19,901 nt of DNA. Source: Candidatus Nanohaloarchaea archaeon. GTDB taxonomy: Archaea; Nanohalarchaeota; Nanosalinia; Nanosalinales; Nanosalinaceae. The DNA is taken from the NCBI GenBank assembly GCA_047617745.1, contig JBLGBN010000017.1:1-19901 (forward strand). The letters run 5' to 3'. Position numbers: made by a program. Shown piece after piece: positions 1 to 6,000 of the stretch; within the stretch, counting starts at the first letter, position 1, and every line of letters begins with the position of its first letter.

Positions 1-3000
1 TGCTGTATCATGTCTCGTATCAGGTTCTGGCTTCTTCGACCATCTGTCTGGTGTTTGGAGAGTTCTTCTCGCACCATTTCTCTGATGACTTCGTGGATTT
101 CGTCAAGTTCCTCCAGCTTAACCATACTTCAACACACCTCTCCAGGTTTTGTCCGAAGTAACGGAGACCTGTTTATAAAGCAGTCATAGGTTAAGCACGG
201 CATCTGGCGGTCGAAAATCGGATAGGAGCGAATTGTCATCGATCTTCACCTCTTCTCCGCATTTCTTCCTTCTGCCATTCAACGAAACCGTCTTCCAGAC
301 ATCCTTCTGTCCAGATTACCTTTCCGTTTTCCATTCTTCTACAGTTGCAGGCATCTGGATGACCTGGTATCGGTTGGTAGATTTTCGAGTCTATACCTTT
401 GTAGTGCAGTTTTCCTCCTGTCTCGAAATTCCGGGTATCGCATCTAGGACAGGTAAGAGTTTCTTCAAGCTCGTATCCGCAGTGTTGACAGTTCATAGAG
501 TTTGTTCACCTATGTAGTATTATTTTCAAGCTGGAGCTTCGCAACGTGGTAGGCGTAGTCTTCTCCGATCACTGGCTCTAACTTGATTTTATCGGAGTTA
601 TCCAGAGAACTGACGACTTCCATCCGTGATTCGTCTCCAAGCTCTTTATCCAGGTCGGGTAAAGGCATCTCCTGGCTCTCCTGCTGGTTAAGTATGCCGA
701 TGGCTTTTGCCTCGATCCTATCCATTCTGCTTCACCCTGTACTGCTCCTGACCTGCTTCCTTGCGGGTTTCGAACACGCTGTTTTCGTGGATAGCGTCGA
801 GAACTTCTACCTTGTCATATTCTTCACTAACGAGATACTGTGCGTTCTGGATTGGATTCCAGCCGTCGCCTTGGGACAAACTGTGGATGGTTTTGGCTGG
901 TTCGTTCAGTTCTTGCTTCACGGAGTTCACGGATTCACTTTGATTCTGCGAAGGGATGTCCTGGTGTTTATCCGAGTCCTGTTCTTTCTCCTGCCCACCC
1001 TCTTCCGTTTCCTTCGTGTAACGGTGAAGTTCGTGAACCTCGTCATCCTCTTCTTCGTTTTGTTCAATCTCTCTTTTCTTGTCTATCAGGTTGTCTATCT
1101 CTGTTTTGTTGAGGAACTGGATTCCTTTGGGTTCGAGTCTTACTCCGCTTCCTGACTTTGTAGCGACAAGTTTCTCGGCTTTCAGTTTCTGCCATTTCTC
1201 TTTCACGGTTCGTTTGCTGTCGCCGAGTTTCTCTGCCAGTGCTCCGGAAGTATTCGCCTCTCGACCTATCTCCTTCAGGATAAGCAGTTGATCTGCGGAG
1301 AGTTCTTCAACAAGTTCTTCCAGTTTTTCCTGGTCAAGCGTGGTCTTCTCTCGTTCCTCTTTCAATAGGCTCTTCATTCCGAGTCGTTCCATTACCTTCT
1401 CGAAAAACTCCTTGACTCGTTCGACATGCTCTTCTGTAACCGTTATTTTTCCGTCCTCAACTGCGTGTTCAAGGACTGCTTGTGCTACGCAGAGCCGTGT
1501 CAGTTTTTCTCTGAATGCTCGGCTGACTATTGGTATGCTCTGGAAGTTGTAGCCTTTCATCATGTTGCTGGCTTCGACTCTGATTCTCTCCTTCGCATCA
1601 TCAGTGTACTGAATATCTTGTGGTTTCAGGCTCCATGCCCAGAGAACATGCTTCTTGTAGAACTCGTCGCTGTATGGCTTCTCCGAGGCTCTTGCCTGAG
1701 CTATCTCGTCCTCTGTAACATCTTCAGCCATGAATGGGATATACAAATCCCAACGCCGTATGTCAGGCCCTGAACTGAAAGTATTCGTGTCCTTGATTGC
1801 CTTGGCAGGTTTCGGGTAGTGTAGGGAGATCGGTTCTTTCGGCGGATTCATAGCCCCGATAATCCTGACTCTGGCAGGTGCAGAACCTTTGACACTTCGG
1901 TTGACGTTTACTCGCTGGTCTTCGAGTATCTCCCGCAGGTTCTTCATTTCCTCTTCGTGTAGCTGGTTAAGTCCGTCCAGTCCGACCAGTCCCATATCGT
2001 TGAGTGGGAGGACGCCCCATTCGATTACTCTCTGTTCTGTGTTGATGGTGTAGGCCAGTCCTGTTCTGCTGCCTGTTTCTGCGGAAGCGTATTCTCCGAG
2101 CCGGTAGTGGTCTTTGGTCAGTTCCTTTATCTGTTCGGACTTGTATGTTCCTCCGTCTCCGAAGAAAAGTAATCGGAGACTGCCTCGCTGTATTTTTCCC
2201 TCGATATTCGGTATGAGAGGTGGGCTGTGTGCGGTAAGCTGTAAACCTTTTCTGGCTAAAGGTCTACCGACCATGTCCGCAGCGATCATCTCGCAGGCGT
2301 TGTCAACCATCCATTTTTCGTTATATTTCTCGTGTTCTTCTTCGCTAAGTTCTATTTCCTGGAAACTTTGCTCCTCTGGCTCTATCTCATCTCCTATCAG
2401 CACCATTTGGTCGTTGTTGCTGTTGACGTGGACTTCTCCTCTGACTTTGACTGACTTGGAGTTCGGTATTTCTTCGCCTATGAGGTAGGCTGGTATGCTG
2501 TTGTTTTGGTTGGCGTTGAACTGTTCTGTATCCTGTAGAAGGTTCTGGAGCTTCATCCAAGATTTGTCAAGGTATTCTTCTATGGTGTGATTCCAGCTGT
2601 GGTTGTTATTGTCATCGATACAGTCTTTCCTGCTGTTCTTCCATGCGATTATGCTTTTCAGGATGTTATGCTGGTTTTTGTTGGAGAGAAGAAAGCGATG
2701 CAACAATTTCTCTTCCACCATATCTCCTTTCCAGGTCTTGTTACACTTCGGACACTCGGCTGTTACTTTCCATGGGATCGCCATTCCCTGCTTCTGTCCC
2801 TTAATCTTGCCTCTGACAGAAATCCGAATATCTACAAGTTCAGAGTTAACATCAGCAGGGCTGTAAGACCTGTAGACATCAAGGAAATGCCTTGCGTCTT
2901 CTATCAGTTCTTCGAGGTCGTAGCCGTTTTCCGTCGTCCAGTCGTCTAAATCCGCTTTCTCTGGCGTTTCTTCACTCCATTCGTGGACGAGAACTTTATG

Positions 3001-6000
3001 CTCCTCTACTAGACTGTCGCCTGTTTGCCGAGCATTCTCCCTACCCGTATCGTCGTTGTCGGTAACTATCAGAATCTGTTTGTAGTTCTTGGCGATACCC
3101 TTGAGTTCGTTGAAGTGCCCTTCAAAGCTTCCGCAGGCTGCAGCAACAGTATCATATCCTGCCTCATAAGCAGAGATGGCATCCGGATAGCCTTCCGTCA
3201 ATATCAGCGTATCGGAACTGTTTCGGAGTAGCTTGTAGATATCGTTTTCCACAAACTCGTTTCCGCTGCTTTTGGCCTGCTGATATTTCTTGTGTTCTTC
3301 CTCTGCGTTGGGATCTCGACACGTTATGAGATAAGGCTGGTCGTTTCTTTCCAGATGCGGAATTAGATATGTGCCGTCTTCCTGTCCTGTCATACCGTAG
3401 TGGATTCCTGCTTCTCCAAGTTTCTCGCCGTACTCCTGTTTCAAGCTGTTGAAAAGCTCTTCATCCATCCAGCCGATTCTCAGGTCTTCAACTGTCTCTC
3501 GACCCCAGTTTCTTCGCTCCTTCAAGTCTTGGTAGTGTTGCTTTTCCAGTTGTTCCTGAGCTTTCTGAACTACTTGTTCCTGTATCTGTCGGATTTCTAT
3601 CCTCTTTTCTCGTTGCTCCGAGCTTTTAGCTTTCTCATCAGGTATTTCTATGTCAAGTCCGTGCTCCTGAATTAGCTGCTTTGCAGCTTCATAGTTGCCG
3701 ATTCCGTCTCTCTGGGCTATGTAGTTGATGAAGTCTCCGCCTTTAGACTTACAGCTGTGGCATTTCCAGTTTCCTGCTTCGTAGATTTTGAGTGCTGGGT
3801 CGCTGTCTCCACAGATTTCGCAGTTCAGCTTGTTTCCTTCTACATCAGCTACATCTGAGAAATCCAGCTTTCTCTTGACTTTATAGATAAGACTCATTAC
3901 TGGTTCACCTGTCGCTTTCTGTTCTTTTCTGAGATTTTGTCTTCCAGCCTTTCTACTGCGTCCTTGGCGTGTTCTACCAATTCCTTTGTATCTTTCTGAC
4001 TACTGAGCCTGCCCGAAGTCTGCTTAATGATCTGACCCCAGTAAAGTGCAGAAGCTGTCATATGAGGTGGTTTATCGGAGTAGAGGCGGTAGACGAGTTC
4101 CCACTTGAACCGTTCCGTTGTAATCTCGACCACAAATCTTTGCCCATATTTTCTGGATTTCTGCATTCTGCTGGTGGCGTCGATAATCTCTGTCATCAAA
4201 ATTTCACCTCTCTCCAGACGCTTTCTTGTCCGAGGAATGGTTCTTCATGGATATGTTTCCAGAACCGACCGCATTCCTGACATTTCCAGATGCTCTCTGT
4301 TTCAAATCTGTCGACATCATTAAACTCCAGTTCTCCACCGCATTCACAGGTTTTCCCTGACATTACTGATCATCCTCCATGCTATCTACGAATGCGTCAA
4401 CTTGCTTCTTTGCGTCCTCTACCGTCTCAATATGCAGGAAATAAATAGACCGATGGTATTCGACCTCGTCCGAGATTTTCAAGATTTGAAACAGGGCGAA
4501 GTCGTTCTCTGGAAGATATATGTCGAACTCGTAGAAAGCATCTCCCAAAGATACAGTCTTGTGAACCTTCTTCCAGGTGTCGTTACTGTAAACCCTGCAG
4601 TTACTGTACACAACTGACACCTCCGAAAAGGGCCGAACCTTTAACAAACGATATATTGAGATGCTCCATTAGGAGTCACCTCCATCTTTTGCAGGTTGGA
4701 CGGAGCTCTCGGCGGGCGGATTTTCGTCCGCCTCCTCTTCCACTTCCAGGGGATATACTTGGTCTGGTTCTCTGTCTTCGAAATAGTCGGGGTAAGTAGG
4801 ATTTTCTGCACCTATCAGGCTGTAGTGTTCAATTACTTCCTCGTCCAGCTTGACGATGTAGAAATGGACTGTTCCCATGTGGAAATGGTCTGTCCCACAG
4901 ATACCTATCTGTCTAGTCACATGGTTATGGGAGCTTACCTCCTCTCTGCGAATTGGATTTTCTTCTTCCCAGTGTTCCTCTTTCCACCTTTTGACGAAGT
5001 AGACCCATGTAGCGACGAAATATTCCAGATCATCGTTCCGAGGCATCCAGTTATAGTAGTCCTGGAGTTTGGAAACGGTTACATCAGGATAGCCGTCACT
5101 ATGTTTGTATGTCAGAACCTTATCTACTCGCCTTTCTAATTCTCCTGTCTTTTGATTCTCCCACTCTATTTCCTGCTGGAAAAGAATCTGACATCTAGTC
5201 GACATTCTTAACCACCTTCTCCTGCAGTTCCTCCCAGTCGTCGAAGCTGTAGTTTCTGTCTCGCAGGAATTCTATGATCGGTTCTCGTAGTTCCTGACCT
5301 AGTTCTCTTACCTGTCGATTTCTGTCGTTACAGAAAGTTTCAATAATTTTCAGGAACGCCTGAAGTTCATCTTCGATTTCTGGTCGCAGTTCTTCGGGAT
5401 CTTTAGCTTTGCTCCAGCCATTTTCGAAGCAGTGAAGAATGTAAATTTTCGCTTCTTTCCTGCTGCATCCGTCTTCTCGAACTCTCTCGGCGTATTTTTC
5501 TACTGTTCCTCTAAGCCAGTTCTTCTGACCTTCAGCCGAGTTCAAAGGATTACAGAACTCTTCCCGACCTTCGCCATTTCCGTCCTCTTCAGTGTCGAAG
5601 AAGTTGTAGTTACTCATCGGCCATCCCCCGTGCTTTCTGTACTTCTTCCCTGAGAATAGGATGCAGGGTCTCAACAGCCTCCTCAGAAGCTTTGAGTATA
5701 ACTTCGAGAGCTTCGTCCAGTTTCTCCTCCTCTCTGTGTTTCACCGCAGACCACCTCTGAGAAAGTTATGGTTGGCTGCTGGGAGGAGTGTAAGCCGAGA
5801 CCGACAGAAACTTAACAGTTGCCTTATATTACCCACTTATATCACCCTGCACCGTAAATTCAACCGAAGCGGGGTGAAAGCGTGGGCAGGTGGCTCTTGG
5901 TCGGGTAGCCTGTCCTCGCTTTATATTTTTCATCGATTTTTCCTCCAGTATTGATGTAGTTCGTGGATGAATCCGTGGTATGGCTGCGCCTGTCTACGGT

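Follow-up and report, generated by a model that had tools for sequence, protein, structure and literature searches.

A one-chain DnaG-type primase and MCM-type helicase on a probable integrative element of Nanohaloarchaea

The window analyzed here, a stretch of 19,901 nucleotides from a Candidatus Nanohaloarchaea genome (G000), encodes a protein (P0001) that joins a DnaG-type primase (residues 1-345) in one chain to a complete MCM (residues 346-935: an OB-fold N-domain with a zinc site, an AAA+ core and a winged helix). An earlier note on this DNA had described a bacterial/phage-type DnaG primase fused to an MCM, and this is borne out by Pfam and NCBIfam matches, AF2 models and Foldseek. Taken as a whole, the evidence is best explained if P0001, with a 3'-5' MCM motor, a DnaG-type primase and Glu607 as the catalytic base, serves as the replicative primase-helicase of a plasmid-like element, about 9 kb long, that integrates at tRNA-Gly(UCC) in Nanohaloarchaea; we consider this explanation likely. 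Primase-helicase fusions are informative about how mobile elements build a minimal replisome, and P0001 offers for study a compact, single-chain and probably homohexameric enzyme.

Domain layout of the primase-helicase

The gene is an intact open reading frame that starts with ATG and has no internal stops. It is organized as follows.

718..3897, minus strand: primase-helicase gene P0001, 1059 aa, stop codon at 718-720
3628..3897, minus strand: residues 1-90, DnaG-type zinc ribbon with C26, C29, C46 and C49 (alignment; Foldseek match to 2au3)
2863..3627, minus strand: residues 91-345, DnaG RNA-polymerase domain with Toprim (E235-G236, D280-x-D282, D316-x-D318)
2383..2862, minus strand: residues 346-505, MCM N-terminal OB-fold domain and zinc site with C382, C385, C426 and H433 (or C) (AF2 and Foldseek)
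1393..2382, minus strand: residues 506-835, MCM AAA+ core and lid (Pfam, alignment, AF2 model)
1093..1392, minus strand: residues 836-935, helical linker and winged-helix domain (weak HTH_20/GntR/CggR_N matches at 873-932; AF2 model)
721..1092, minus strand: residues 936-1059, acidic linker and 62-aa C-terminal domain (998-1059) (sequence comparison)

In the primase part, Toprim_2 (Pfam) matches residues 232-319 at 6.7e-9, and Zn_ribbon_DnaG (Pfam) gives a match of 9e-4 that is below its cut-off. The NCBIfam model dnaG TIGR01391 matches two stretches at 3.3e-23, with 82.2 bits against an equivalog cut-off of 283.6 bits, so that P0001 does not qualify as an equivalog. The AF2 model of residues 1-345 (pLDDT 87.1) has its best Foldseek match in 2au3 (ZBD+RPD; E 2.0e-16, 376 columns); next come DnaG cores, T7 gp4 and Twinkle (1nui, E 2e-7; 7t8c, E 7e-7). 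Both the CHC2 zinc ribbon and the Toprim acidic residues of DnaG are present, as seen in the alignment and the 2au3 fold. C26, C46, C49, E235, G236, D280, D282, D316 and D318 are invariant among 11 aligned fusion proteins, and some relatives have H instead of C at position 29; the invariance or near-invariance claimed previously for C46, C49, E235-G236 and D280-x-D282 thus holds in all 11 sequences and extends to C26. From the conserved catalytic residues and the fold, the N-terminal third is predicted to be a DnaG-type primase whose zinc ribbon would read the template and whose Toprim acidic residues would bind metal. It would do so without the DnaB-binding C-domain of cellular DnaG, which P0001 does not have because the chain is MCM from residue 346.

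In the helicase part, Pfam MCM (PF00493) matches residues 526-687 (4.5e-16, 59.1 bits vs a cut-off of 23.3) and NCBIfam MCM NF040949 matches residues 497-922 (1.4e-11). The top Foldseek matches of the AF2 model of residues 346-940 (pLDDT 94.1, pTM 0.91) are full-length archaeal and eukaryotic MCM chains; against archaeal MCM 8x7t_D, E is 8.8e-29 over 633 columns with a TM of 0.66. By AF2 and Foldseek this region has the OB-fold N-domain with a zinc site, the AAA+ tier with h2i and pre-sensor-1 hairpins and the C-terminal winged helix of an MCM, the last modeled as helices followed by two strands at residues 911-921. C382, C385 and C426 of the zinc site are invariant in the fusion-protein alignment; Pfam MCM_OB has no match in P0001 itself but does match relatives. 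No Pfam DnaB-family domain matches P0001, which therefore does not fall into SF4: its helicase part folds as MCM.

The AAA+ core carries Walker A K586/S587, E607 after beta2, Walker B D641-G642, sensor 1 N684, the Arg finger R715 and sensor 2 R796/R801. K586, S587, D641, N684, R714, R715, R796 and R801 are kept in the 11 fusion proteins, and R715, within 'RRWD', aligns with the 'SRFD' Arg finger motif of MCM. By homology to MCM and to the prophage protein BcMCM, the C-terminal two thirds would form an MCM-type hexameric 3'-5' helicase, and the winged helix probably recognizes the element's origin; no origin (iterons) was found in the island. The covalent link to the MCM N-tier should place the primase at the exit of the excluded lagging-strand template.

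The 62-aa C-terminal domain (998-1059) is 97% identical to part of an unrelated 716-aa P-loop protein.

The island and its tRNA site

P0001 is encoded within an eight-gene operon, on an island that begins at the 3' end of tRNA-Gly(UCC).

6433..6504, minus strand: tRNA-Gly(UCC), putative attachment site (tRNA call, tcc; empty-site and G053 comparison)
6393..6432, no strand: island end, 40 nt, abutting the tRNA 3' end (92% conserved in G053; missing at the empty sites of G054 and G066)
3897..5674, minus strand: five upstream ORFs of the same operon (159, 178, 94, 55 and 100 aa), whose starts and stops overlap or abut
236..725, minus strand: two small downstream ORFs, of 71 aa (510-725) and an 86-aa zinc-ribbon protein (236-496), with 89-93% aa identity to the G053 copies

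The 71-aa ORF overlaps the primase-helicase stop by 8 nt, and none of the five upstream ORFs has a family match. The same element is found at the same tRNA in G053, a closed genome of another genus, where the protein has 94% aa identity to P0001. There the element spans ~8.9 kb, and its far boundary is marked by a degenerate 24-nt copy of the tRNA end: at 224528-224551, where synteny with G054 stops, 19 of 24 nt directly repeat the tRNA 3' end, and we estimate that about 0.003 such matches would be expected by chance in the 39 kb searched. Element DNA is 87% identical between G053 and G000, compared to 66-77% for the flanking host genes; the element has been transferred recently between genera.

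Closed genomes of the same genus have an empty site at this tRNA, which, together with G053, supports the earlier note's description of a strain-specific mobile island at tRNA-Gly. Its claim that the gene block is missing from four same-genus genomes also held for the fusion (0/4); G068 has no more than a primase part, 30% identical, within another frame of 1010 aa. Of the 70 genomes of the order, four, counting G000, have full-length homologues of P0001. The element probably integrates at the tRNA-Gly(UCC) 3' end and moves between genera, and it is one of few delimited integrative elements of Nanohaloarchaea. Neither the G000 nor the G053 copy was found to contain an integrase or other recombinase, and PF00589 has no match inside the element, the nearest being 18 kb off in G053 and on contig C1 in G000. 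The earlier statement that this contig carries no integrase or att repeat stands for the integrase, but an att-like degenerate repeat is now seen at the far end in G053.

The lack of an integrase, the degenerate distal repeat in G053 (19/24) and the two ORFs that G053 has beside the tRNA but that are missing from the G000 copy, itself cut by the contig start, could indicate that the island is a decaying remnant and the gene a relic no longer serving an active element. However, the reading frame of 1059 aa has stayed intact, with every catalytic residue, in two genera whose copies are 94% identical; near-identical sequence turns up in 16 runs, each with at least half of the sampled words; and contigs show many allelic variants. 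We regard decay as very unlikely.

The MCM-like family and the Walker B glutamate

Our own search returned 15 relatives of P0001, of which 10 are full-length fusions (1048-1066 aa, 44-94% identity) and three are similar over the primase part only (50-55% identity), two of these with D5_N+DUF5906. Both kinds of relative had been described before and do exist, but these counts replace the previous 18 relatives, 11 fusions and four D5-type proteins. Helicase-module swapping against D5-type relatives, as proposed then, is supported by P0012 and P0013, which share the primase part and carry D5_N+DUF5906.

By sequence, the MCM module belongs to a large mobile-element MCM-like family that includes BcMCM. 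It comprises 602 representatives at E<1e-30 (profile search), stand-alone or fused to AEP or DnaG, and these N-terminal primases have been swapped repeatedly within it. P0001 matches phrog_18685 at 4e-32, vs 4.5e-16 for Pfam MCM, and it has the marks of a BcMCM-type protein: an MCM-like module that resembles BcMCM and its relatives more than cellular MCM, a variable N-terminal primase and a C-terminal wHTH. The former label of 'archaeal/eukaryotic-type MCM' fits the fold, yet the module is of the mobile-element family and not host-type (24% identity to the host MCM). Nor is the architecture limited to Nanohaloarchaea, as the relatives then known had indicated: it is not unique, since cultured phages of Microbacterium and Arthrobacter, as well as other metagenomic clades, have distant DnaG-MCM-like fusions, and phage proteins that join a DnaG primase to a distant SF6 (DUF3987) helicase were already noted by Kazlauskas 2016.

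P0062, P0107 and P0141 combine this MCM-like module with AEP-TOTE, a Pfam domain that takes its name from the TOTE conflict system, and the primase part of P0001 has a PADLOC match (2.3e-14) to a DnaG-like domain belonging to a DRT system. This could point to a role in conflict/defence or in repair, by priming on invading DNA or abortive DNA synthesis, rather than in replication of the element. We find such a role very unlikely: the PADLOC matches are domain-level only, none of the eight neighbouring ORFs tested matched a defence model, the primase-MCM-WH layout mirrors that of the replication proteins BcMCM, P4 alpha and T7 gp4, and the homologue in phage Krampus, annotated as DNA primase, lies amid replication and recombination genes.

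The Walker B motif of MCM is IDEFDKM. In all 11 fusion proteins, Walker B is D641-G642 instead of 'DE'; the absent glutamate was overlooked in the earlier note. DG is found in 107 of 152 rows of the MCM-like family, and an acidic residue follows the Walker B Asp in only 8 of 151. Of the elements of the ATPase site, the Walker A Lys, the Walker B Asp, sensor 1, the trans Arg finger and sensor 2 are retained, and the Walker B Glu is missing. Among the scored family rows, K586 (149/151), N684 (151/151) and R715 (151/151) are nearly universal, which argues for a working ATPase.

The residue at the E607 position varies with Walker B. It is E or D in 141 of the 143 rows without an acidic residue after the Walker B Asp but in only 2 of the 8 rows with one (Fisher p = 5e-8 over 151 rows, uncorrected for relatedness), and the two positions appear to change together at three separate places in the tree: the DE clade near the midpoint root, P0020 (DE/N) and P0078 (DD/A). 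DSSP on the AF2 model assigns residues 601-605 to beta2 and 637-641 to beta3, strands that are adjacent in the MCM strand order 5-1-4-3-2 given in PMC4619765, also our basis for taking the second acidic residue of Walker B as the catalytic glutamate in MCM. The covariation suggests that the invariant Glu607, two residues past beta2 and beside the Walker B strand beta3, may be a relocated catalytic glutamate that acts as the base in place of the absent one; judging by topology, it would lie close to the nucleotide. Zhang and Wigley are said to have placed, in 2008, the 'glutamate-switch' residue of other AAA+ proteins at the beta2 tip.

Because BcMCM, P0159 and P0161 have both the Walker B and the beta2 glutamate, the latter may have another, older role. 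It is tempting to speculate that this large family moved its catalytic glutamate from Walker B (beta3) to the tip of the neighbouring beta2, with at least three moves or reversals and with the double-Glu forms (BcMCM, P0159, P0161) as intermediates, a scenario that we hold to be possible but a little short of probable. If true, the relocation would represent a novel arrangement of the active site in AAA+ helicases and could explain the helicase activity retained by the BcMCM Walker B mutant D711A; if functional, the pattern is a natural experiment on the position of the catalytic base, for both MCM and AAA+ research.

The DG at Walker B, in 11/11 fusion proteins and 107/152 family rows, and the host's own canonical MCM with DE could also mean that the module is a pseudo-ATPase that binds ATP and DNA, its ring tethering the primase at the origin while the host MCM unwinds. 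We consider this quite unlikely, given that between 149 and 151 of 151 rows retain the Walker A Lys, the sensor 1 Asn and the Arg finger, that Walker B covaries with the invariant Glu at beta2, that many members are the sole large gene on small contigs, and that BcMCM, of the same family, is an active helicase.

Comparison with known systems

As a replicative primase-helicase, P0001 would stand beside documented pairings that include DnaG+SF4 (T7), DnaG+SF3 (P4), AEP+SF3 (D5) and AEP+MCM (BcMCM). A bacterial-type primase with a complete archaeal-type MCM in an archaeon tests DnaG in the service of a 3'-5' helicase that leads with its N-tier.

BcMCM (BC1863 of Bacillus prophage phBC6A51) likewise comes from a mobile element and combines, in one chain, a primase, an MCM-type AAA+ helicase and a winged-helix tail. 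It aligns with P0001 at 27% identity over residues 474-874 (E 2e-28) and shares the 'AE..SRTGL' motif past beta2. It has been shown to have 3'-5' helicase, ATPase and primase/polymerase activities (PMC3273815; also PMC2715239). Unlike P0001, BcMCM has an archaeo-eukaryotic prim-pol with a PriL-like zinc region rather than DnaG and keeps the Walker B DE; by the account of Samuels 2009 (PMC2715239), it is missing the typical MCM N-domain.

T7 gp4 and Twinkle resemble P0001 in placing an N-terminal DnaG-type zinc ribbon and Toprim primase on a hexameric replicative helicase. Their motor, however, is an SF4, RecA-fold, DnaB-type 5'-3' helicase, whereas that of P0001 is an SF6 AAA+ MCM, expected to move 3'-5'. 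The phage P4 alpha type (DnaG-type plus D5/SF3) includes the closest relatives of the primase part, P0012 and P0013 (50-55% identity over residues 1-347, with D5_N+DUF5906), but its helicase is SF3 and not MCM, with the break point at about residue 347. A C-terminal winged helix is common to the P4 alpha-type and P0001 architectures (Kazlauskas 2016).

Microbacterium phage Krampus gp47 and relatives, annotated 'DNA primase' or 'DNA primase/helicase', align end-to-end with residues 23-933 (E 7e-23). Like P0001, gp47 has a zinc ribbon, Toprim, an MCM-like AAA+ and a C-terminal region, with Pfam matches to Toprim_2 (8e-10) and, weakly, to MCM; it differs in its identity of only 23%, its retained Walker B DE, its place in a separate deep clade of the family and its bacterial host. 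Cellular archaeal MCM (for example 8x7t, 4r7y and the host copy on contig C14) shares the three-tier fold, Walker A, sensor 1, RxxD Arg finger and sensor 2. At 24% identity, the host MCM has DE at Walker B where P0001 has DG and 'VGKSSSGAGL' past beta2 where P0001 has 'SAETGSRTGL', and cellular archaeal MCM has no N-terminal primase, whereas in P0001 the primase is fused.

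Domain architecture and origin of the fusion

By domain composition, fold and conserved residues, the 1059-aa protein P0001 joins a DnaG-type primase (residues 1-345) to an MCM helicase (residues 346-935). An earlier note on this DNA had proposed such a fusion, and its interpretation was essentially correct: the finding is real. The window is an entire contig, C17, of 19.9 kb, and the genome that holds it comprises 834 kb in 34 contigs and is 88.6% complete. The features discussed here are as follows.

718..3897, minus strand: intact ORF of P0001, as previously described, with an ATG start
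5674 down to 236, minus strand: eight ORFs whose stops and starts overlap or abut, all on this strand
4669-5205, minus strand: ORF of 178 aa
6433..6504, minus strand: tRNA-Gly(UCC)
rightward of 6550: archaeal host genes (Nop56/58, fibrillarin, Suf)
6551-9666: ABC-2 permease, ABC ATPase and NPCBM_assoc-domain protein, between tRNA-Gly and the Nop56/58 gene

The MCM P-loop domain claimed earlier was recovered well over the Pfam cut-off (4.5e-16, residues 526-687). Four Pfam models matched the Toprim region, the best being Toprim_2 (6.7e-9, 232-319), and the DnaG zinc ribbon matched below threshold. NCBIfam returned bacterial dnaG (3.3e-23, in two stretches) and MCM across 497-922, while a PDB sequence search returned about 60 MCM chains (top MCM6, 8e-13) together with the Aquifex primase 2au3 (2.5e-5).

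We modelled the two halves separately from alignments of relatives (1-345, 24 sequences; 346-940, 77 sequences). The primase model (pLDDT 87.1) bore out the assignment to bacterial/phage-type DnaG: Foldseek against the PDB matched the zinc-binding and RNA-polymerase domains of 2au3 (E 2e-16, 376 columns), then DnaG catalytic cores from Bacillus, Staphylococcus, Mycobacterium and E. coli (7e-11 to 1e-7), followed by T4 gp61, T7 gp4 and Twinkle. The helicase model (pLDDT 94.1, pTM 0.91) matched the full-length archaeal MCM 8x7t_D (E 8.8e-29, 633 columns, TM 0.66) as well as eukaryotic Mcm2-7 subunits. Because these matches span a full-length MCM fold, the helicase part is more than a bare P-loop. 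It comprises an MCM N-terminal OB/zinc domain with invariant zinc-site residues C382, C385 and C426, an AAA+ tier with two beta-hairpin insertions, a lid and a winged helix, beyond which the chain continues with an acidic linker and ends in a conserved domain of 62 aa.

Conservation was scored in an alignment of 11 full-length fusion proteins. All 11 keep the primase residues C26, C46, C49, E235-G236, D280-x-D282 and D316-x-D318, the Walker A motif G580-D-G-G-T-x-K586-S587, sensor 1 N684, R796/R801 of the sensor 2 region, and R714-R715-W-D717, which aligns with the MCM 'SRFD' arginine finger.

Three proteins of about 1000-1040 aa match the primase part with their N-terminal 345 residues, at 50-55% identity. 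P0012 and P0013 carry D5_N and DUF5906 (P4-alpha type), in agreement with the helicase swapping suggested before; the third, P0014, has no recognised helicase family. The profile match to these three proteins ends at position 347, the exact start of the MCM N-domain. In the remaining DnaG-MCM-like clades, the DnaG parts share just 17-23% identity or so. Taken with the tree described below, this indicates that a P4-alpha-like primase was joined to an MCM-like helicase in the Nanohaloarchaeal fusion, and that DnaG-MCM-like fusions arose more than once.

Frames of 952-1100 aa, plus a 382-aa fragment in G060, occur in other Nanohaloarchaeal genomes (G050:C33, G050:C51, G068:C13, G060:C95, G037:C18); their N-terminal third resembles the primase part alone, at 28-36% identity. 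These are probably further DnaG-type primase-helicases with other motors. At the opposite end of P0001, the last 62 residues (998-1059; window 721-906) are 97% identical to the C-terminus of P0015, a 716-aa P-loop protein otherwise unrelated to P0001, and a 730-aa frame in genome G033 ends in a stretch that matches them at 79%. This looks like a small domain shuffled between differing replication-type proteins of Nanohaloarchaeal elements, and it is possibly a host-factor docking domain.

The helicase family and its Walker B site

The helicase of P0001 belongs to a family of MCM-like proteins of mobile elements. A profile from the 11 fusion proteins, run against 1.84 billion representatives, found 12,306 proteins at E<=1e-3, of which 602 reached E<=1e-30; full-length fusions account for only three of the representatives. 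Among the best 150, most begin to match the profile only near position 350 and score 200-570 bits, far above P0001's Pfam MCM score. Family members are about 650-800 aa long when they stand alone and 900-1300 aa with N-terminal extensions. A domain scan of 41 of the best 150, mostly longer ones, found extensions with archaeo-eukaryotic primases (Prim-Pol, AEP-TOTE + PriCT_1, DNA_primase_S, primase large subunit), extensions of no recognised family and, in separate groups, a DnaG-type zinc ribbon plus Toprim (P0117, P0151, P0159-P0161). The last combination also occurs in P0016 and in a 1017-aa ORF of a 39-kb IMG/VR contig. One 999-aa protein, P0148, unites three parts in a single polypeptide: Prim-Pol, a DnaG-type zinc ribbon and the MCM-like module.

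The top PHROGs match of P0001 is phrog_18685 (4e-32, a 1028-position profile), and BcMCM (BC1863 of the Bacillus prophage phBC6A51, 1028 aa) aligns over residues 474-874 with 27% identity (E 2e-28). Identity to the host's own MCM is just 24%, so the helicase module is no recent acquisition from the host.

The Walker B motif of MCMs reads 'IDEFDKM', and that of the host's own MCM 'IDEIDKM'. All 11 fusions have (I/L)-D641-G642-L-N, from which the catalytic Glu is absent. To follow this across the family, motif columns were taken from an HMM alignment of the collected proteins, which are mostly best profile hits. Over 152 rows, the Walker B dipeptide is DG in 107, EG in 12, DS in 9, EA in 7 and DE in only 6. 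The position of E607, just after strand beta2, holds Glu in 137 rows and Asp in 6. No acidic residue follows the Walker B Asp in 143 of 151 rows, and 141 of those 143 have E or D at E607; the two exceptions, lacking both acids, are P0026 and P0128. Where an acidic residue does follow the Walker B Asp (8/151), the beta2 Glu is present in only two. This covariation gives a Fisher p of 5e-8 with rows treated as unrelated. Arg611 in the same loop is kept in 142/151 rows whatever the Walker B state, so only the Glu takes part in the covariation.

A FastTree tree with midpoint root was built from the AAA+ core of 148 proteins, after rows with >25% gaps had been dropped. On this tree the canonical Walker B state appears in three distinct positions: in a deep clade made up of DnaG-fused proteins plus P0158 (DE, where the beta2 position holds L, S, K or E), in P0020 (DE/N), which falls within DG/E sequences, and in P0078 (DD/A), sister to the Nanohaloarchaeal clade. 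This family-wide pattern is the most surprising element of the analysis and could be tested by a few point mutants.

Strand beta2 of the model ends at residue 605 and beta3 at D641. Given the MCM strand order 5-1-4-3-2 stated in PMC4619765, E607 and Walker B occupy adjacent parallel strands, each at the C-terminal edge. Our reading, from this topology, is that the catalytic base has been relocated to the beta2 tip; Glu607 would be the catalytic base of the helicase. In other AAA+ proteins, this tip is where the 'glutamate-switch' residue sits. For DnaC, PMC8213410 gives the switch as Thr134 and the catalytic residue as Glu170. BcMCM differs in carrying both glutamates ('NAES...' and 'WIDE'); its Walker B mutant D711A retained reduced ATPase and helicase activity, according to PMC3273815.

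The element at tRNA-Gly

The island adjoins tRNA-Gly and has been transferred between genera. Full-length homologues of P0001 occur in 4 of the order's 70 genomes (G000, the genome described here, and G053, G049 and G037) and in none of the four others of the same genus, as the earlier note had reported. G053, a closed 1.05-Mb chromosome of another genus, has a copy 94% identical in protein that also adjoins tRNA-Gly(UCC). Over window 255-5760 the two share 87% DNA identity, against 66-77% for flanking host genes. The 40 nt after the tRNA 3' end are common to both and absent from G054 and G066, closed genomes with no island at this tRNA.

G053-G054 synteny stops at G053 224,303, and a direct degenerate copy of the tRNA 3' end (19/24 nt) lies at 224,528-224,551; by our estimate about 0.003 such matches are expected by chance in 39 kb. 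Together these delimit a G053 element of about 8.9 kb; no exact or near-exact att repeat was found in G053 at <=2 mismatches in 14 nt. The far end of the G000 element is lost at the contig start. The search for an att repeat in G000 found none except the T-arms of other tRNAs, and the genome contains no second island copy. Synteny with G066 and G054 places the other host flank probably on contig C2 near 62-65.6 kb; C2:65.6-71.9 kb, likewise a likely flank by this synteny, holds membrane proteins and no element genes.

Apart from the primase-helicase, no operon ORF has a family match. Inside the element we found no PF00589 integrase match and saw no membrane or capsid-like protein; as to virus hallmark genes, the neighbours lack PHROG matches and the G053 copy lacks hydrophobic small proteins. 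On this basis we class it as a plasmid-like integrative element that a recombinase would mobilise. For the 325-aa ORF adjoining the tRNA in G053, all ESM Atlas leads stayed below threshold: the top one, at 0.89, was an 'Integrase' cluster and the others were wHTH regulators. None of eight contigs tested had the terminal overlaps of circular contigs, and no convincing iteron or origin candidate emerged. Neighbouring genes are shared only with G053, none being conserved at the 46-50%-identical loci L005, L006, L010, L033 and L034.

Near-identical element sequence (at least half of sampled words) occurs in 16 public runs, all labelled sediment or soil metagenomes, with no RNA runs listed. Logan contigs of four runs were fragmented and multi-allelic, diverging near the tRNA 3' end; this divergence could stem from tRNA-Gly of other organisms and was discounted.

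Several observations concern local variability. The 178-aa ORF is 59% identical to its G053 counterpart, against 82-93% for operon neighbours, and in Logan contigs the stretch 4733-5213 is in places skipped or replaced by other sequence; the gene may evolve fast or behave like a cassette. Between operon and tRNA, G053 encodes a 70-aa wHTH protein (L052:5096-5308) and the 325-aa ORF (L052:5421-6398, no family), and the corresponding G000 place holds 630 bp of unrelated, mostly non-coding DNA. A second insertion that varies between strains occupies window 6551-9666, 5' of the tRNA: in the same-genus G066, only about 17 nt separate the tRNA from the Nop gene region. The G066 tRNA-Gly(UCC) (L055, G066:C1, about 452,775-452,955) has a roughly 60-nt intron after the anticodon loop and was missed by ARAGORN. 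In island-free G054 (L054, G054:C1), the 3' end of tRNA-Gly recurs as a 13-nt direct repeat (CGGACGCCGCAAA) about 50 nt downstream of the gene; this may be the trace of a past integration or excision event there.

Proposed mechanism and comparison with known systems

By homology with BcMCM, cellular MCM, DnaG and T7 gp4, P0001 would act as a homohexameric 3'-5' helicase whose winged helix would recognise the origin and whose DnaG module would make primers on the excluded strand. Since this module is joined to the MCM N-tier, it would sit at the ring's leading face.

In open-access text, apart from one supplementary table of Kazlauskas et al. (2016) that possibly lists DnaG-SF6 fusions, we found no account of a DnaG primase joined to an entire MCM, nor of a protein of this kind encoded by an archaeal element. 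The words DnaG and Toprim are absent from a 2025 preprint on nanohaloarchaeal viruses and satellites.

The architecture is not unique. tblastn over 50,697 phage records gave 54, from 36 Microbacterium, 10 Bacillus and 2 Arthrobacter phages and others. Residues 23-933 of P0001 align at 23% identity (E 7e-23) with Krampus gp47, a 961-aa protein annotated 'DNA primase' that has Toprim_2 and a weak MCM match and retains the Walker B DE. According to Kazlauskas et al. (2016), phage SF6 DUF3987 helicases are often fused to AEP or DnaG primases, with no preference for primase type among SF6 helicases. The architecture of P0001 adds a variant to this existing class rather than a new category.
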